Origin: Phage NC-G | Sequence record: MK310184 | Reading direction: 5' to 3' (one strand) | DNA length: 64,000 nt | Part shown: piece by piece, positions 1,678 through 51,598 of the stretch | Numbering within the stretch: position 1 is the first letter of the stretch | Layout of the letters: each line of letters opens with the position of its first letter | The notes under the pieces: generated by a model | Told to the model about the DNA's origin: nothing | What the model saw: only the letters and a program-made list of their open reading frames with translations | Databases searched by the model: none | Program-made: the position numbers and the translations under genes

Positions 1678-2094
1678 TTAAGCGTAAATAGCCTTGCCAT
1701 AATGTTTGTACCAGGTAGGACGCTGTGCAATTTTTTCGTCCAAACGAGCTTGTGAAATGGCGATGGAAGCTTCGTGTGGAGTATAATCACCACGGAATTC
1801 CTGAGGAATATCACTAATGTCCTGGACCGTAGTATCCTTGATATTAAAACCACGTTTTAAACATTCGGCTATAAGCTCGATTTGACGTTTACGTAAAAAT
1901 TCAAGCTTATCATAAAAGAAAGTAACATGGCCTGTACCAAGGATAAAAGTAGAGCTAATTTTAAAATCACGAACACGTTTACCATTAGCAACATGCTTAC
2001 GAACTGCGCCGAAAACACGTGGTAATTCGCGATATTCAGCCATTAAGTGTTGGTCGGCCAATTCAGATACTAAGGTAAGGTTGATACGAGTCAT
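1678..2094 (-). CDS. denV: Endonuclease V (pyrimidine-dimer DNA glycosylase)
   Basis: Translation from [44 protein letters not shown] is near-identical to T4 endonuclease V as I recall it; start set at the internal Met to give the catalytic Thr2 N-terminus. Confidence 0.9.
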
Positions 2095-3563: not shown

Positions 3564-4044
3564 ATGCTTTCCAAGTACCTGTTTTAAATGTTGAAATCAC
3601 GCGCTTAGCACGATTAGGAGTTTGTTTATACCAACGGGATTGAGCCAGGTTAACTGCCGCATCGTTCCAACGTTTCTGTTGGAGCATACGTAAGGAGTTA
3701 GTGAACCCTGCTACACCTGCTTCACCCATTTGGAAGACCATATTAATTAGTGCACAACGACGAACTTCATCCAGTACATCATAAACAGGTTTCAATTTAG
3801 GATTACGCAGAATAGCTCTACGAGCATTTTCAACCGACCGGTTAAAGAGTTGTTCGGCTTCAGTCATTGTAATACGACCATTACAAACTCGACCCATAAG
3901 TTTATCAAGTTCGGCACGAGCAACATCTTTAGAAGGATTCTTGGTTATCAATTGGCCGATGCCAATAGTCCAATAACCCTCGGTATCTTTATACAAATCA
4001 AGTTTAAGGCCTTCGTCAATACGAAGCATTTCAAAAATATCCAT
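3550..4044 (-). CDS. e: Endolysin (T4 lysozyme, muramidase)
   Basis: 164 aa; [30 protein letters not shown] and [30 protein letters not shown] are near-identical to T4 lysozyme including the catalytic E11/D20/T26 context. Confidence 0.95.
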
Positions 4045-4048
4045 AATA

Positions 4049-4065
4049 CCTCCTGAGTATAGGAG
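4049..4065 (-). promoter_or_regulatory. Hairpin sequestering the gene e Shine-Dalgarno
   Basis: Minus strand CTCCTatactcAGGAGG immediately 5' of the e ATG; a GATAAATA late-promoter-like motif lies just upstream (plus 4068..4075). Confidence 0.5.
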
Positions 4066-4078
4066 ATATTTATCATTC

Positions 4079-4528
4079 TTAGAACAACGAACTCAGGACC
4101 TTATACATCGACTGACCCATGACATATTCCCATTGCGGACGTTTAATCAAGGCGAAAGCATCGAACTCAGGAATACTACGACCGTCAGGGAACGTATGAT
4201 AAGCCGTACATTTGCAATCCTTGAACTGCTCGTGTTCCACAGGCACTGTATATAAGAACAGATGTAGATTCTTATTGCTTGAATATTTGAACTCACCTAG
4301 GTCTTTCAGGAATGCAGGATCGTATGCTGTGAATCCAATCTCTTCTTCAGTTTCACGCATAGCCGCTTGAATTGGTTCTTCACCCGGTTCAACATGACCT
4401 TTAGGAATGTCCCATTTATGATGCATATTCTCTGGATTACGAGAGCCTGTTACACGACCCATAACTAATTCTTTATCAACGGTCATGAACAAAATACCGG
4501 CTGATAGTTCTTTAACTTTCTTACTCAT
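4079..4528 (-). CDS. nudE: Nudix hydrolase
   Basis: Nudix box [22 protein letters not shown]; position directly next to e as T4 e.1; start set at MSKKVKEL, whose ATG overlaps the upstream stop. Confidence 0.85.
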
Positions 4529-4760
4529 CGTCTCGTTTCCATGATTGGTTAAAAATATCTTGCATAATAATAATTTCAAGGCGTGTTTCTGTTGATGGAC
4601 TTTCACTATTAGATACTTGAACCATATAGTCGGAAATAGGTTGGAACATATCCAAGTCGCTTTCCAAATCTTCTTTTATTTTCTCTTCTGATGTTCCTGT
4701 GTCATAGGAATACAGATATGAATCACACGACTCGGATTTAATATAAATCGCAATACTCAT
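4521..4760 (-). CDS. Hypothetical small acidic protein, 79 aa
   Basis: ORF in the track; its TGA overlaps the nudE ATG. Confidence 0.45.
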   Translation of the reverse strand: MSIAIYIKSESCDSYLYSYDTGTSEEKIKEDLESDLDMFQPISDYMVQVSNSESPSTETRLEIIIMQDIFNQSWKRDDE

Positions 4761-5344
4761 TTACGGCATTCCTCAATAAAAGAATTCAATGTATTTTTCT
4801 TAGTGATATCGTCGTATAGCTTTTTAACTTTAGAAATACGAAAAGGCACTTCAATAACTGCAGTCCATAAAAATGATGCGATAAGACCTAAGATAGCCGC
4901 AGACATAGCTGAAGCGAATACAGAAATAGGCAGGTCGTTATCTGTTGTCAGGAAAAACCCTAGGAGTGGGAAAAATAATATACCCATCCAAACATAGAAT
5001 CTAGAACTCACCAATTTGTCATATTCATCACTCCACGTACGAAAACCATATTTTTCACTATAACAAATCAATGGGTCCGGTGTTTGTTCTTTATGTGGTT
5101 TCGCTTGCCACCCATTTACGATATAACCCATTCTGAACTCCTCAATTAAAAGTCGTTTCATTTCAGCAGTACAGCCTGACCAATCTACTGTACTGGCTGA
5201 AATTCCTTCATCACCATCATCAAGATTCAGCCAGGACTTTTTAATAATCATATTCTCACCACTTGGGATAATAATTCCGGCATTTTCTGACCTACGGATG
5301 AAGTTTGTATCAATACCCATACACCCAGGTTCATAAAGGGCCAT
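4757..5344 (-). CDS. Hypothetical membrane protein, 195 aa, ending in FIEECRK
   Basis: Two hydrophobic segments (FYVWMGILFFPLLGFFL and AAILGLIASFLWTAVI); C-terminal motif shared with two other ORFs. Confidence 0.5.
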   Translation of the reverse strand: MALYEPGCMGIDTNFIRRSENAGIIIPSGENMIIKKSWLNLDDGDEGISASTVDWSGCTAEMKRLLIEEFRMGYIVNGWQAKPHKEQTPDPLICYSEKYGFRTWSDEYDKLVSSRFYVWMGILFFPLLGFFLTTDNDLPISVFASAMSAAILGLIASFLWTAVIEVPFRISKVKKLYDDITKKNTLNSFIEECRK

Positions 5345-6257: not shown

Positions 6258-6284
6258 TTTATTCTCCATTTCACTCTGTTGTTT

Positions 6285-6325
6285 TGATAGGTCTATAGTA
6301 TCACACCTATAGACCTTGTACACTG
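6285..6325 (-). promoter_or_regulatory. Early promoter plus stem-loop cassette (PeSL-like)
   Basis: Minus strand GTGTACA, then GGTCTATAGgtgTGATACTATAGACC (9-bp stem enclosing an extended -10), then conserved leader CTATCAAAACAACAG. Confidence 0.5.
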
Positions 6326-10483: not shown

Positions 10484-10531
10484 AATATTCTCCTCTCCTC
10501 CAAATAGGGAGACCGAAGTCTCCCGGTAACA

Positions 10532-11149: not shown

Positions 11150-11190
11150 TTTTGTAATCCATGAGGACATTATACCCTGTCCTCTGAGGG
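11150..11190 (-). promoter_or_regulatory. Early promoter plus stem-loop cassette (PeSL-like)
   Basis: Minus strand GTTTACAaccctcaGAGGACAggGTATAATGTCCTC: -35, -10 and a GAGGAC/GTCCTC stem around the -10. Confidence 0.5.
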
Positions 11191-11200
11191 TTGTAAACAT

Positions 11201-11617: not shown

Positions 11618-11656
11618 ATGGGCTCATAATATCTCAATCATGAGCCCATGTAAACA
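11618..11656 (-). promoter_or_regulatory. Early promoter plus stem-loop cassette (PeSL-like)
   Basis: Minus strand GTTTACAtGGGCTCATgattgagaTATTATGAGCCC: 8-bp stem enclosing the -10. Confidence 0.5.
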
Positions 11657-11921: not shown

Positions 11922-11944
11922 TTTACTCTCCTTCACACTGTTGT

Positions 11945-11990
11945 TTTGATAGGTCTATAGTATCATGTTTAAAGGAGGTGTAAACAACTT
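11945..11990 (-). promoter_or_regulatory. Early promoter cassette (PeSL-like)
   Basis: Minus strand GTTTACAcctcctttaaacaTGATACTATAGACCTATCAAAACAACAG, same leader as the other cassettes. Confidence 0.5.
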
Positions 11991-12018
11991 TGTGAAATTA
12001 TTTTTAGTTTAAACCCCC

Positions 12019-12040
12019 TAAAAGGAGACCGAAGTCTCCT
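12019..12040 (-). terminator. Rho-independent terminator hairpin
   Basis: GGAGACcgaaGTCTCC stem flanked by A/T runs just downstream of the 12045 gene stop. Confidence 0.5.
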
Positions 12041-13663: not shown

Positions 13664-13739
13664 TTGGTCGAGACAGTAGGGATCGAACCTACGACCCAGG
13701 ACTTAGAAGGTCCTTGCTCTTCCTTCTGAGCTATGCCTC
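13664..13739 (-). tRNA. tRNA-Arg (anticodon TCT)
   Basis: Hand-folded cloverleaf: acceptor CGAGGCA/TGTCTCG, D-stem GCTC/GAGC, anticodon stem AGGAC/GTCCT with loop CTTCTAA, T-arm GTAGG-TTCGATC-CCTAC, encoded CCA. Confidence 0.8.
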
Positions 13740-13743
13740 GTAT

Positions 13744-13818
13744 TTGGCGGACGTGCATGGATTCGAACCATGGACCAATTGATTAACAGTCAACTGCTCT
13801 ACCACTGAGCTACACATC
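13744..13818 (-). tRNA. tRNA-Asn (anticodon GTT)
   Basis: Hand-folded cloverleaf: acceptor GGATGTG/CACGTCC, D-arm GCTC-AGTGGTA-GAGC, anticodon loop CTGTTAA, T-arm CATGG-TTCGAAT-CCATG, encoded CCA. Confidence 0.8.
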
Positions 13819-13822
13819 CAAA

Positions 13823-13896
13823 TTGGTGACCCTGGGTGGAATCGAACCACCATCCAGCGATTATGAGTCGCTCGCTTGACCGTCCAGCTACAGGGC
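13823..13896 (-). tRNA. tRNA with CAT anticodon (Met, or Ile if lysidine-modified)
   Basis: Hand-folded cloverleaf: acceptor GGCCCTG/CAGGGTC, anticodon stem AGCGA/TCGCT with loop CTCATAA, T-arm GGTGG-TTCGATT-CCACC, encoded CCA; D-stem slightly imperfect. Confidence 0.7.
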
Positions 13897-13973
13897 CAAT
13901 TCTATTATGAAAGGTTCTTTGAGGGAAGAACCTTTGGTAATAGAGGGTACTTATTAATAATAACACATAACTC

Positions 13974-14874: not shown

Positions 14875-14915
14875 TAGGGCTATAGTATCACCACTAGAGC
14901 CCGTTGTACACAATT
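14875..14915 (-). promoter_or_regulatory. Early promoter plus stem-loop cassette (PeSL-like)
   Basis: Minus strand GTGTACAacGGGCTCTAGtggTGATACTATAGCCCTATCAAC. Confidence 0.5.
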
Positions 14916-47058: not shown

Positions 47059-48618
47059 ATGAAAAAGAATGCATTAGTTCAAAAATGGTCCGCTCTGCTG
47101 GAAAACGAAGCTCTTCCTGAAATCGTTGGTGCTTCTAAACAAGCTATCATCGCTAAAATTTTCGAAAACCAGGAACAAGACATCCTGACTGCTCCGGAAT
47201 ACCGTGACGAAAAAATCTCTGAAGCATTTGGTTCTTTCCTGACCGAAGCTGAAATCGGTGGTGACCACGGTTATGATGCTACCAATATCGCTGCTGGCCA
47301 GACCTCTGGTGCAGTAACTCAGATTGGGCCGGCAGTAATGGGTATGGTTCGTCGTGCTATTCCTCATCTGATTGCTTTTGATATTTGTGGTGTCCAGCCT
47401 CTGAATAACCCTACCGGTCAGGTATTTGCACTGCGTGCAGTATATGGTAAAGACCCTATCGCTGCAGGCGCTAAAGAAGCTTTCCATCCGATGTATGCTC
47501 CGAACGCTATGTTCTCTGGTCAGGGTGCTGCTGAAACTTTCGAAGCACTGGCTGCAAGCAAAGTTCTGGAAGTTGGTAAAATTTATTCTCACTTCTTCGA
47601 AGCTACCGGTTCTGCACACTTCCAGGCTGTTGAAGCTGTAACCGTTGATGCAGGCGCTACTGATGCCGCTAAACTGGATGCTGCTGTTACCGCTCTGGTT
47701 GAAGCTGGTCAGCTGGCTGAAATCGCTGAAGGTATGGCTACTTCTATCGCCGAACTTCAGGAAGGTTTCAACGGTTCTACCGATAACCCGTGGAACGAAA
47801 TGGGCTTCCGCATCGACAAACAAGTTATCGAAGCTAAATCTCGTCAGCTGAAAGCAAGCTACTCTATCGAACTGGCACAGGACCTTCGTGCAGTACACGG
47901 TATGGATGCAGATGCTGAACTGTCCGGTATCCTTGCTACCGAAATTATGCTCGAAATCAACCGTGAAGTTATCGATTGGATTAACTACTCTGCACAGGTT
48001 GGTAAATCTGGTATGACCAACACCGTTGGCGCTAAAGCTGGTGTGTTTGACTTCCAGGACCCGATTGATATCCGTGGTGCTCGTTGGGCCGGTGAGAGCT
48101 TTAAAGCCCTTCTGTTCCAGATTGATAAAGAAGCAGCCGAAATCGCTCGTCAGACCGGTCGTGGTGCTGGTAACTTCATCATCGCTTCCCGTAACGTAGT
48201 TAACGTACTGGCTGCAGTTGATACTTCTGTAAGTTATGCAGCTCAAGGTCTGGGTCAGGGTTTCAACGTTGACACAACCAAAGCAGTATTTGCCGGTGTT
48301 CTTGGTGGTAAATATCGTGTTTACATCGACCAGTATGCTCGTTCCGATTACTTCACCATCGGTTATAAAGGTTCCAACGAAATGGACGCAGGTATCTACT
48401 ATGCTCCGTACGTTGCACTGACTCCGCTGCGTGGTTCCGATCCGAAGAACTTCCAACCGGTAATGGGCTTCAAAACTCGTTACGGTATCGGTATTAACCC
48501 GTTCGCTGACCCAGCTGCTCAGGCGCCTACCAAACGTATTCAGAATGGTATGCCTGACATCGTTAACAGCCTCGGTCTGAATGGTTACTTCCGTCGCGTA
48601 TATGTTAAAGGTATCTAA
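47059..48618 (+). CDS. 23: Major capsid protein gp23
   Basis: 519 aa; N-terminal propeptide ending LTEAEIGGDHGY at a gp21-type LxE cleavage context. Confidence 0.95.
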   Translation: MKKNALVQKWSALLENEALPEIVGASKQAIIAKIFENQEQDILTAPEYRDEKISEAFGSFLTEAEIGGDHGYDATNIAAGQTSGAVTQIGPAVMGMVRRAIPHLIAFDICGVQPLNNPTGQVFALRAVYGKDPIAAGAKEAFHPMYAPNAMFSGQGAAETFEALAASKVLEVGKIYSHFFEATGSAHFQAVEAVTVDAGATDAAKLDAAVTALVEAGQLAEIAEGMATSIAELQEGFNGSTDNPWNEMGFRIDKQVIEAKSRQLKASYSIELAQDLRAVHGMDADAELSGILATEIMLEINREVIDWINYSAQVGKSGMTNTVGAKAGVFDFQDPIDIRGARWAGESFKALLFQIDKEAAEIARQTGRGAGNFIIASRNVVNVLAAVDTSVSYAAQGLGQGFNVDTTKAVFAGVLGGKYRVYIDQYARSDYFTIGYKGSNEMDAGIYYAPYVALTPLRGSDPKNFQPVMGFKTRYGIGINPFADPAAQAPTKRIQNGMPDIVNSLGLNGYFRRVYVKGI

Positions 48619-48633
48619 TATAAACCTTATTAT

Positions 48634-48655
48634 GGGAGACTTCGGTCTCCCATTC
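48634..48655. terminator. Bidirectional terminator hairpin after gene 23
   Basis: GGGAGACttcgGTCTCCC with flanking A/T runs, between convergent genes. Confidence 0.55.
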
Positions 48656-48666
48656 TTGTTTCTATA

Positions 48667-48933
48667 CTATGCAATCTTAACACGACGGTTGATGATATCA
48701 CGGAAGTCAATACGATTTTCTTGGATTTTCAGCCAGTTACCAGATTTGTCTTTGGTATGGGTAGAGTATTCACCGTTCCACCAGAAGTCGGTAGCATAAG
48801 CCATGGCTTCGTATTTCTTAACTAGTGCATTCACTGCATTACCGTTAGGATTGGAACCATATTTTTCTACCAGGGCTTTGATGTCTTTATCAAGAGCGGA
48901 AAGAGTAGTACGAATAAAGTTTAACTTGTTCAT
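48667..48933 (-). CDS. Hypothetical small protein, 88 aa, in the position occupied by segD in T4
   Basis: Start at MNKLNF with GAGGAGATT Shine-Dalgarno; driven by its own promoter cassette; no GIY-YIG motif. Confidence 0.5.
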   Translation of the reverse strand: MNKLNFIRTTLSALDKDIKALVEKYGSNPNGNAVNALVKKYEAMAYATDFWWNGEYSTHTKDKSGNWLKIQENRIDFRDIINRRVKIA

Positions 48934-48944
48934 TTTTAATCTCC

Positions 48945-48995
48945 TCATGTTTTGATAGGTCTATAGTAACATGTGATAACCTTGCTGTAAACAAC
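48945..48995 (-). promoter_or_regulatory. Early promoter cassette (PeSL-like) between genes 23 and 24
   Basis: Minus strand GTTTACAgcaaggttatcacaTGTTACTATAGACCTATCAAAACATG, same leader as the cassettes near the tRNA cluster. Confidence 0.5.
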
Positions 48996-48998
48996 TTT

Positions 48999-49006
48999 TA
49001 TAAATA
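48999..49006 (+). promoter_or_regulatory. T4 late-promoter motif TATAAATA upstream of gene 24
   Basis: Exact TATAAATA about 28 nt before the gene 24 ATG. Confidence 0.55.
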
Positions 49007-49034: not shown

Positions 49035-50318
49035 ATGGCAAAGATTAACGAATTACTGCGCGAGTCAACAACTACTTCTAGCAACTCATTGGGTCGCCCT
49101 AATCTTGTTGCTTTGACCCGTGCTACAACCAAATTGATTTACCGTGATATTATTGCTGAACAACGTACTAGCCAGCCTATTGCTGCATTGTATGGTGTCA
49201 AATATCTTACTCCTGATAATGAATTTAGCTTCCAAACTGGTGCCGTTTATGGTGGTGAAGTTGGTTCTAAAGACCGTGAAACTATCCCGGAACTCACAGA
49301 TAAGGCCCAGGCTATTGCCAAGGGTGAATATTTCAAGTATCAGAACATAGTTTATAAGGCTCTTCAAGCAAGCCCACTCGCATCCACTAGCGCTACAGAA
49401 TTGACTGATGCCCTTCAAGAAGGTTTGGTGTCATTAACATGTCGTCTGGTTCCTGATGCGGCTCACACAGAGAAATTCGAAGCAGGTGATGTTGAAATTA
49501 GTAATGCAGTATTCCAGGTTAATAAATGGAACGCACCTGTTAAGTCTCGTAAACTTAAAACCGCTTTGACTGTAGAACTAGCCCAAGACATGGAATCCAA
49601 TGGCTTCGACGCCCCTGCGTTCTTAGAAGACCTTTTAGCCACTGTAATGGCTGATGAAATCAATAAAGACGTACTACAATCCTTGATTACCGTATCCAAA
49701 CGCTATAAAGTTACTGGTGTATCTGATAATGGTATTATTGATTTGACTTATGATAGTGCTCCGGAATCTGCACGTAAACTTTATGAAATTGTTTGTGAGA
49801 TGAATTCTGAAATCCAGAAAACTACTTCTTATTCTGGTACGTTTGTTGTGGCTTCAAGTCGTGTAGCTGCAATGCTTGCGGGTTCAGGCTGGTTAAAACA
49901 TAAACCTGAAGATAATAATTGGCTCCCAGAAACTGCCTATGGTTATTTGTTGAATGGATTACCTCTGTTCTGTGACGTTAACAGCCCGTTGGATTATGTT
50001 ATCGTCGGTGTTAAAGAGAACTATGGTGGTAATGAAGTTGTCGGTTCTATTTTCTATGCCCCGTACACAGAAGGCCTGGATTTAGACGACCAAGAACACG
50101 TTGGTGCTTATAAGGTTATTGTCGACCCGGATTCATTACAGCCTTCTATTTCTCTGATGGTTCGTTATGCACTGTCCGCTAACCCGTACACCGTAGCTAA
50201 AGACGATAAAGAAGCTCGTGTTATAGATGCAACCAATATGGATTTAATGGCTGGACAGAGTAATATGTCTTATCTGCTTGGTGTTAAACTTCCAGCAATT
50301 ATTTACGAGGCTGATTAA
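49035..50318 (+). CDS. 24: Capsid vertex protein gp24
   Basis: 427 aa; MAKINELLRESTTT... is near-identical to the T4 gp24 N-terminus. Confidence 0.95.
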   Translation: MAKINELLRESTTTSSNSLGRPNLVALTRATTKLIYRDIIAEQRTSQPIAALYGVKYLTPDNEFSFQTGAVYGGEVGSKDRETIPELTDKAQAIAKGEYFKYQNIVYKALQASPLASTSATELTDALQEGLVSLTCRLVPDAAHTEKFEAGDVEISNAVFQVNKWNAPVKSRKLKTALTVELAQDMESNGFDAPAFLEDLLATVMADEINKDVLQSLITVSKRYKVTGVSDNGIIDLTYDSAPESARKLYEIVCEMNSEIQKTTSYSGTFVVASSRVAAMLAGSGWLKHKPEDNNWLPETAYGYLLNGLPLFCDVNSPLDYVIVGVKENYGGNEVVGSIFYAPYTEGLDLDDQEHVGAYKVIVDPDSLQPSISLMVRYALSANPYTVAKDDKEARVIDATNMDLMAGQSNMSYLLGVKLPAIIYEAD

Positions 50319-51598
50319 TGTCTAAGATTATAGACCTAATTAAAGAATCCACATTGACGGCTGCCAACTCGGTTGGCCGTCCTGCTCTTCTTTCATACAC
50401 CCAAGCAACTAATAAACGAATCTTTAAAGCCCTAGTTGCTGAACAAAAAACAAGCCAACCTGTTGCCGCTCTGTACGGGGTTCGTGTACTTAATCCCGAC
50501 GACAAAATGACTTATCTTGGTGGTGCTACATTTGCAGGCCAGATTGGTATGTCGGAACGTGAAAATATTCCTGAATTTACCGATTCGTCTACAGCTTATG
50601 CAGCCGGAGATATGTTCCAGTTTGAAAGTGTAGTGTTTAAAGTTCTAGAAGCATCCCCTTTCGCCGGAACCACAGAAACCGACCTCGGTGAAGTTATTTC
50701 TGAAGCAGTGGCCGCTGGACATATTCGTATGGTATCAGATGCTGCTATTACTTCTAAATTTGAACAAGGCCATCCTGAAATTGCTGAAGCAGGCTTCCGT
50801 ATTGACAAATGGCAATCTGAAGTTAAATCACGTAAACTGAAAACTTCATTGACAGTCGAATTGGCCCAAGACCTAGAATCAAACGGGTTTAATGCTCCTA
50901 ATTTCGTTGAAAATCTGCTAGGTATTCAAATGGCGGAAGAAATTAATAAGGACGTATTACAGTCATTAATTACGGTGAGTTCTCGTTTTAAAGTCCAGGG
51001 TGTTTCTGAAAAGGGTGTATTAGACCTTACTAACCCGCGTTACGATAATGCCCAGGACCGTGCTCGTACATTATATTATTACATGTGTGAGATGAACTCT
51101 GCCGTCCAACGTCAAACTTCTTTCGCCGGGACTTATGCAGTAGCTAGTTCTCGTTGTGCTGCTATTCTCGCCGCTTCCGGTTGGGTTGAGAAAAAGGAAG
51201 ACCAAGACGAACTGGCTTATGGTGTATTAAAGAATGGTCTGCCTCTTTATGCCGATATGAATAGTCCATGTGATTATGTTATTGTTGGTGTAAATGCTCA
51301 GATGGGTGAAGGACAGACGGTCGCATCTTTATATTATGCGCCTTATACGGAAGGTTTGGATGTGGTTGATGAAGAAGGTGATACTTCAGTAGGTGAATTT
51401 AAGGTTATTGTTGACCCGGAAAGCTTACAACCTACAGTAGCATTGCTTGCTCGTTATGCATTGACTGCAAACCCTTATACCGTCGCTAAGGACGATAAAG
51501 AAGCCCGCATTATTGATGGCTCTGATATGGACAAAATGGCTAACCAAAGCCAGTTGAGTTCTTATCTTGGTGTTAAACTTCCACCACTAGAAAAATAA
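50318..51598 (+). CDS. Second, diverged gp24-family vertex protein paralogue
   Basis: 426 aa, colinear with gp24 at roughly half identity by eye (shared KSRKLKT, TVELAQD, INKDVLQSLITVS, PYTVAKDDKEAR); TAATG overlap with gene 24. Confidence 0.85.
   Translation: MSKIIDLIKESTLTAANSVGRPALLSYTQATNKRIFKALVAEQKTSQPVAALYGVRVLNPDDKMTYLGGATFAGQIGMSERENIPEFTDSSTAYAAGDMFQFESVVFKVLEASPFAGTTETDLGEVISEAVAAGHIRMVSDAAITSKFEQGHPEIAEAGFRIDKWQSEVKSRKLKTSLTVELAQDLESNGFNAPNFVENLLGIQMAEEINKDVLQSLITVSSRFKVQGVSEKGVLDLTNPRYDNAQDRARTLYYYMCEMNSAVQRQTSFAGTYAVASSRCAAILAASGWVEKKEDQDELAYGVLKNGLPLYADMNSPCDYVIVGVNAQMGEGQTVASLYYAPYTEGLDVVDEEGDTSVGEFKVIVDPESLQPTVALLARYALTANPYTVAKDDKEARIIDGSDMDKMANQSQLSSYLGVKLPPLEK

Follow-up and report, generated by a model that had tools for sequence, protein, structure and literature searches.

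The stretch of DNA analysed here (64,000 nt of Phage NC-G, record MK310184; hereafter the window) comes from a JS98-type member of the T4-type phages. When 901 nt across the junction of genes 23 and 24 were used as a query, the identity was 100% with Escherichia phage EcWhh-1 and 99.6% with JS98, which is the type species of Dhakavirus, a genus of the Tevenvirinae. Between these two head genes lies a short gene on the opposite strand, which encodes a protein of 88 aa (hereafter ORF88) and is preceded by the ribosome site GAGGAG and by an early promoter, as the initial annotation had described (Table 1). The JS98 annotation lists at the same junction orf173, a hypothetical protein identical to ORF88. 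The left flank is formed by the terminator hairpin of gene 23, with its UUCG loop in the gene 23 sense, and the right flank by the late promoter of gene 24a, which lies outside the insert. The hairpin is likely to stop the convergent transcript of ORF88 as well. A longer, 93-aa reading of the ORF, as annotated in IME08 (3953-4234 of our record L002 of that locus), begins at an ATG that lies in the leader and overlaps the GAGGAG, and no ribosome site precedes it; the credible start is that of the 88-aa form used in JS98, with GAGGAG 7 nt upstream. Gene 24 is present in the window as a tandem duplication, also annotated in JS98, IME08 and VR26, and a single copy is found in T4, T2, G28 and the Mosigvirus phages.

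Table 1. Features of the gene 23/gene 24 junction, in window coordinates
Feature	Position	Strand	Basis
Gene 23	47059-48618	+	ORF list and sequence
Gene 23 terminator hairpin, GGGAGAC-TTCG-GTCTCCC with T-rich tail	48632..48653	+	terminator scan
Whole inserted unit, ~330 nt	48666..48995	-	empty junctions of X20, T2 and Mineola; seven-phage alignment
ORF88, 88 aa (JS98 orf173; PHROG 6003 member)	48667..48933	-	ATG at 48933, stop codon at 48667-48669
Shine-Dalgarno GAGGAG, 7 nt before the ATG	48941..48946	-	sequence and alignment of early-promoter leaders
-10 and leader block TACTATAGACCTATCAAAACA, 21 nt	48948..48968	-	three exact copies in the window
-10 hexamer TACTAT	48963-48968	-	promoter scan
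-35 block AAAGTTGTTTACA	48986..48998	-	promoter scan
-35 hexamer TTTACA	48986-48991	-	promoter scan
Gene 24a late promoter TATAAATA	48999..49006	+	sequence; conserved in seven aligned phages and at empty sites
Gene 24a, capsid vertex protein	49035-50318	+	ORF list
Gene 24b, second copy of gene 24	50318-51598	+	ORF list

The limits of the insertion were read from an alignment of the junction across T4-like genomes that includes sites without the gene. The empty spacer measures 83 nt in T2 and RB3 (Tequatrovirus), 81 nt in Klebsiella phage Mineola (Jiaodavirus) and 89 nt in Serratia phage X20 (Winklervirus). In X20, 32 nt (GGGAGACTTCGGTCTCCCATTCTTGTTTCTAT) identical to positions 48634-48665 of the window are followed by GGCTT and then by the late promoter TATAAATA (junction TATAAATAAAC), which sets the insert at about 48666-48995, i.e. 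roughly 330 nt, and agrees almost to the base with the interval of 48667-48995 given in the initial annotation. The insert holds exactly the promoter (-35 block, spacer and -10), the leader, the ribosome site and ORF88 through its stop codon. The hairpin was considered as a further part of it and rejected, since X20, which has no insert, carries the same hairpin and tail unchanged. The alignments identify the ORF88 unit as a real insertion, a promoter with its gene placed as a discrete piece among the late head genes, and one that is not conserved as such across all relatives. By the same comparison it is to be regarded as dispensable for the capsid module, because most Tequatrovirus phages lack it, as do the Jiaodavirus and Winklervirus phages whose empty junctions were read.

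Early-type promoters were sought by a regular-expression scan of the window, which returned eight credible candidates, seven of them at 6-16 kb and the eighth at ORF88. The ORF88 promoter (TTTACA-17-TACTAT with a TG-extended -10, 48991..48963 on the minus strand) matches the consensus of T-even PeSL promoters, TTTACW-N17-TAYWAT (PMC4122927). Upstream of its -35 element there is an A/T-rich tract, GTTTATTTATAAAAGTTG, which overlaps the late promoter of gene 24a and runs directly into it, so that an early and a late promoter stand back-to-back. The 21-mer comprising the -10 and the leader occurs in the window in three exact copies, at 6280, 11942 and 48948, all on the minus strand (none expected, and no match in 100 shuffled sequences). 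The first two copies are near the tRNA genes at 13665-13897, which bears out the claim that the leader is the same as that found around the tRNA cluster. The 13-mer at -35 is common within the window only to the promoter at 11984. Since the latter has the hairpin GGAGACTTCGGTCTCC just upstream (12024) and is followed by the 11942 leader, the segment 11942-12039 constitutes a complete PeSL, to which the -35 and leader regions of ORF88 are identical at 13/13 and 26/27 positions. The 16-mer of this hairpin has three exact copies in the window, against 0.01 expected: at 10508-10523 (-), 12024-12039 (-) and, in the gene 23 terminator, 48635-48650 (+).

The leader is nevertheless a poor marker of origin. 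The sequence CCTATCAA follows the -10 element in five of the eight candidate early promoters (6322, 11984, 14910, 15253 and 48991) and a close variant follows that of a sixth (7794), and for this reason it looks like a genome-wide trait of an early-promoter family, and not like a unique tag or a proof of a shared recent source. Inverted repeats overlap early promoters at 6295-6322, 11169-11197, 11626-11654 and 14882-14910 (all on the minus strand), with the 3' arm in the -10 or in the leader (AGGTCTATAG...CTATAGACCT at 6322 and TGGGCTC...GAGCCCA at 11654 are examples), which means that the terminator of an upstream gene and the promoter of the next one overlap there. The consensus promoter of ORF88 suggests early timing of its expression. 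T4 RegB cleaves the GGAG motif in early mRNAs, and the GGAG within the ribosome site of ORF88 would make its mRNA a potential RegB substrate.

The initial annotation regarded this promoter as PeSL-type, which is correct with respect to the consensus and to the PeSL-like leader, but not to the stem-loop. The unit shares with PeSLs the sigma-70-type early promoter fitting the T-even consensus, the A/T-rich upstream tract, the ribosome site and start codon of a small ORF at the 3' end, and the presence in the genome of multiple similar promoter/leader copies near variable genes. On the other hand, the segment 48934-49040 (minus strand) folds with an energy of -15.2 kcal/mol (z = +0.69), and 157 of its 200 shuffled versions fold at least as well as the real sequence. 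No inverted repeat was found upstream of the -35 element of ORF88, where the available space is occupied by the late promoter and ribosome site of gene 24. Lacking an upstream stem-loop, the unit is not a complete PeSL. A second PeSL bracketing ORF88 was not found either; the sole further element, the gene 23 hairpin, has the orientation of gene 23 and is present at the empty sites. The sequence features of a moron are there, namely a predicted promoter, a single gene, a terminator and a presence/absence polymorphism between conserved genes. In its organization the ORF88 unit appears to work like a PeSL-type or moron-type cassette and to be an ordinary accessory early-gene cassette. Cassettes of this type are already known, and orf173 has already been annotated as hypothetical.

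The search for relatives of the 88-aa protein placed it in a family devoid of annotation, PHROG 6003 (E = 4.2e-50, residues 1-88 against a profile of 90 positions). Neither Pfam, NCBIfam nor PADLOC gave anything usable, and searches of PDB sequences, with the single protein and with the profile, revealed no relative. A sub-threshold Pfam match to DUF5380 (E = 0.1) was treated as a chance hit; it is not common to the other family members. A profile search of 1.84 billion representatives returned only about six true relatives; two long matches (P0017 and P0020) are false positives caused by repetitive or low-complexity sequence, and another (P0021) looks like a chimeric assembly. In comparison with close alleles the dN/dS ratio is 0.03-0.13 and the differences are mostly synonymous. 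Family members at 30-36% identity retain the same length, with M1, K3, F6, G31, N32, N35 and Q71 invariant and N30 nearly so. The low dN/dS and the preservation of length and motifs to such a low identity mark ORF88 as a real, constrained protein, evidently under purifying selection. It has a net charge of about +5 (15 K/R vs 10 D/E) and, as judged by eye, no long hydrophobic stretch. A confident AlphaFold2 model based on an alignment of 11 sequences (mean pLDDT 83.8, pTM 0.67) comprises helices 3-25, 31-48 and 77-87, with a short hairpin between them. Foldseek found nothing in the PDB at E <= 0.001, the only BFVD match was a member of the same family, and comparison of the model in three ways yielded no informative fold match in any library.

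ORF88 is not a degraded seg-type endonuclease. As the initial annotation had stated, T4 carries segD at the same place, also on the minus strand, and ORF88 exhibits no GIY-YIG or HNH motif: Pfam gave no nuclease match, ten scanned family members share no consistent nuclease domain, and BLASTP reveals no similarity to T4 SegD (E = 0.96). The suggestion that segD and ORF88 are alternative cargoes did not hold, as the two genes also occur together. In IME08 and KAW3E185 segD is nested inside the unit: it starts at a distance of 3 nt from the stop codon of ORF88 and extends to just short of the gene 23 hairpin, and both ORF88 and segD are of full length. In the segD-bearing phages ORF88 differs from the window by five substitutions in the last ~15 nt (window 48667-48681; IME08 L002 ~3950-3965), which change the C-terminal KIA* to KAA*, and the rest of the gene is 100% identical; these substitutions would fit changes at an endonuclease recognition site. 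We rejected a replaced C-terminus in these phages, which the tblastn matches to residues 1-72 only had seemed to indicate, because direct translation gives a full-length protein with no other change than KIA to KAA.

T4 and the Gelderlandvirus CGG4-1 have segD only, without ORF88. The interval between segD and gene 24 in these phages aligns with the ORF88 promoter region. In T4 it contains, some 50 nt upstream of segD (4754-4782 on the minus strand of our locus record L004, from NC_000866), the element TTTACA-17-TATTAT, whose -10 is TG-extended and which agrees with the consensus at 10 of 12 positions, and in CGG4-1 the equivalent place is occupied by TTTACA-17-TAAAAT (L025, ~1940-1975, minus strand). 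T4 thus retains the same promoter. According to a 2010 review of the T4 mobile elements, no segD-specific promoter could be identified and transcript levels are possibly vanishingly low (PMC2988022); the element described here suggests that a candidate segD promoter in T4 has been overlooked.

The ORF88 protein was detected by tblastn in 237 phage records, one copy in each. In about 20 T4-type loci examined the homologue is always antisense and always at the 23/24 junction: in Dhakavirus (JS98, IME08), Tequatrovirus (G28), Gaprivervirus (VR26, 63% identity), Mosigvirus (G53 and O157 typing phage 6, 34-36% identity) and in metagenomic T4-like contigs. A scan of IMG/VR for distant members retrieved only the same T4-type lineages, mostly matching isolates already seen. 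Among the sequence records, the empty junction of T2 type is found in about 500-600, the segD junction of T4 type in 53, and ORF88 together with an IME08-type segD in 38. A distant member of PHROG 6003 (P0018, ~33% identity, E = 2e-17) was found at 3923-4340 of Logan contig SRR30397407_518 (L020), in an array of small ORFs; the only DNA matches of this contig are short stretches to Erwinia phages of ~84 kb. A promoter-like site is present 50 nt upstream of the P0018 gene, and a GC-rich hairpin right after its stop codon is followed by a near-consensus promoter, TTGACA-17-TATACT, for the next ORF, a PeSL-like layout outside the T4 group. From this context it follows that the family has the character of a portable unit of one gene in two types of phages that are unrelated to each other.

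The alleles at the 23/24 junction fall into three classes, at about 100%, 65% and 35% identity, all with the same left and right boundaries, which argues for one old insertion followed by divergence and exchange via the homologous flanks. An allele identity of 35% contrasts with 62-94% in the DNA of the capsid genes and could reflect the replacement of resident alleles by distant homologues instead of their divergence in situ. Horizontal exchange was assessed by sliding-window identity on an alignment of eight phages. In G28, almost the whole of genes 23 and 24 has 97-100% identity to T4 and T2, whereas the stretch between ~48560 and ~49010 is 92-100% (mostly >=95%) identical to the window, which itself is mostly 62-90% identical to T4 over the flanking genes. 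This switch indicates the transfer of a segment of ~450 nt from one genus to another, the crossovers being in the final ~50 nt of gene 23 on one side and in the late promoter and start of gene 24 on the other. The flanks of KAW3E185 are those of another Mosigvirus, G53 (93-100% identity), but KAW3E185 carries an ORF allele of the JS98 type (82-95% to the window) together with segD, and G53 an allele of the Mosigvirus type (44-55%). Homologous recombination in the conserved flanks, possibly assisted by homing, would be enough to explain these exchanges.

From these comparisons we consider it likely that the ORF88 unit is a self-contained antisense early unit which was inserted once, diverged, was exchanged between genera through its flanks and serves as a landing pad for SegD. 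According to this reconstruction, a unit in which a sigma-70 early promoter and a ~22-nt leader precede a strong ribosome site and the 88-aa ORF, and which converges on the gene 23 hairpin, would have entered the 23/24 junction a single time, as its boundaries are equal in Dhakavirus, Gaprivervirus, Mosigvirus and some Tequatrovirus phages. The three allele classes most probably moved from one genus to another through homologous recombination in the conserved last part of gene 23 and first part of gene 24. The unit would then have become, as the nested arrangement strongly suggests, both a landing pad and a promoter donor for SegD-type homing endonucleases inserting 3 nt after its stop codon, and T4 would very plausibly represent the end state, in which the promoter and leader were kept, the ORF was lost and segD was left. 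Right after infection the host RNA polymerase is predicted to make a monocistronic mRNA of ~320 nt, starting near 48956 and stopping at the gene 23 hairpin.

The initial annotation proposed that the mobile module found near the tRNA genes delivered an unrelated gene into this site. A discrete insertion of a gene unrelated to SegD at the place of segD is what we observe; its delivery by a PeSL module is another matter. In such a scenario a mini-circle from the hyperplastic region near the tRNA genes would have integrated ORF88 at the 23/24 junction, and recombination at the conserved promoter/leader and at the hairpin would have swapped the alleles. Mini-circles of this kind have been shown experimentally in RB49 and phi1 (PMC2839356). 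The ORF88 promoter and leader are nearly identical to those of the complete PeSL (11942-12039), more so than promoter function alone requires, which leaves some room for a cassette-mediated origin, and the gene 23 terminator contains the 16-mer that forms the hairpin of that PeSL. The profile of identity between the window and G53 (87-89% in the terminator and 68-72% in the promoter/leader, but only 46-58% in the ORF) also agrees with swaps inside the cassette, as does the end of the JS98-like stretch of KAW3E185 within the -10/leader. The hairpin, however, belongs to gene 23, being in the gene 23 sense and unchanged at the empty X20 site, and the ORF88 promoter is associated neither with an upstream stem-loop nor with a second flanking PeSL. 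Moreover, the leader is common to most early promoters in the window, ORF88 occurs at no other locus of the T4-type genomes covered by tblastn and by the loci examined, and the crossovers of G28 are in gene 23 and in the start of gene 24, outside the cassette. On balance we find delivery by the PeSL module improbable.

Still less probable, in our opinion, is a reading in which ORF88 is tied to a SegD-type endonuclease, as its target site or partner, and has spread mainly as co-converted flanking DNA. It would account for the 38 records in which segD follows 3 nt after ORF88, for the joint acquisition of segD and a JS98-type allele in the Mosigvirus backbone of KAW3E185, and for the confinement of the substitutions in the segD-bearing phages to the very end of an otherwise identical gene. 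However, ~200 of the 237 ORF88-bearing records are without an IME08-type segD, G28 gained the unit without any endonuclease, T4 and CGG4-1 retain segD without ORF88, and purifying selection extends over the whole ORF88 protein. The convergence of the ORF88 transcript with gene 23, whose terminator it shares, could also be taken to mean that the ORF is incidental and that an early antisense RNA modulates read-through or expression at the 23/24 boundary; this we regard as very unlikely in view of the low dN/dS (0.03-0.13), the conservation of length and motifs at 30-35% identity, the strong ribosome site, the occurrence of a family member in an unrelated phage context, and the expression of genes 23 and 24 without the unit in most relatives. 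The derivation of ORF88 from a seg-type homing endonuclease, of which it would be a degraded remnant, has only the position at the segD site in its favour and can practically be dismissed: it is contradicted by the lack of a nuclease domain and of similarity to SegD, and by the presence of intact ORF88 beside full-length segD in IME08 and KAW3E185.

With respect to function, we propose only tentatively that ORF88, inserted once and exchanged through its flanks as outlined above, is a small cytoplasmic accessory factor of the first minutes of infection, which acts on a target of the host or of a competitor (in host takeover, anti-defence or exclusion) and not in head assembly. Such a target seems the most plausible one because of the predicted early timing, the portability and the hyper-divergence of alleles, and head assembly can do without ORF88 because most relatives lack it. 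It is conceivable, though rather doubtful as a complete scheme, that the unit is parasitised by SegD-type endonucleases riding its promoter, that the retained promoter drives segD in T4, and that ORF88 is a fast-diverging early effector against the host or competitors, whose alleles are shuffled by flank recombination and by homing. What the analysis adds is a clean history of a locus with four states (empty; promoter and ORF; promoter, ORF and segD; promoter and segD), together with a candidate promoter for T4 segD. Because the boundaries are clean, the succession of events can be read off: the accessory early gene came first, a homing endonuclease followed, and the original gene was lost in T4. 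The candidate promoter offers a concrete and testable explanation of segD expression in T4, and the pair of IME08 and JS98 provides a natural system for studying SegD homing and co-conversion. The profile of ORF88 (predicted to be early, dispensable, exchanged and hyper-divergent) resembles that of anti-defence and host-takeover genes and makes it a reasonable candidate for screens. These findings do not change the understanding of T4-type genomes.

Among known systems, a close counterpart is the T4 segD locus, where a free-standing GIY-YIG homing endonuclease occupies the same junction in the same antisense orientation, with a homologous early-type promoter back-to-back with the late promoter of gene 24. 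The cargo is different, as ORF88 is an unrelated helical protein of 88 aa, and the nesting of segD downstream of ORF88 in phages of the IME08 type makes the two genes successive occupants of one unit, not alternatives. The PeSL cassettes (Arbiol et al. 2010, PMC2839356; Comeau et al. 2014, PMC4122927) resemble the ORF88 unit in the early sigma-70 promoter, the A/T-rich tract upstream of it, the 3' ribosome site and start of a small uncharacterised ORF, the near-identical copies adjoining variable small genes in the genome, and the association with indels. Unlike them, the ORF88 unit has no upstream stem-loop and no second flanking cassette, resides in a conserved late structural block and not in a hyperplastic region, and was exchanged by crossovers in the flanking capsid genes. 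Morons, known from the literature on lambdoid phages (Juhala, Hendrix), are autonomous promoter-gene-terminator units between conserved genes. The ORF88 unit is similar to them in having its own promoter, a single small accessory gene and a terminator, in its insertion between two essential late genes and in its absence from close relatives. It differs from them in that its host is a strictly lytic T4-type phage, and in that it is antisense, borrows the terminator of the neighbouring gene and has been colonised by a homing endonuclease.
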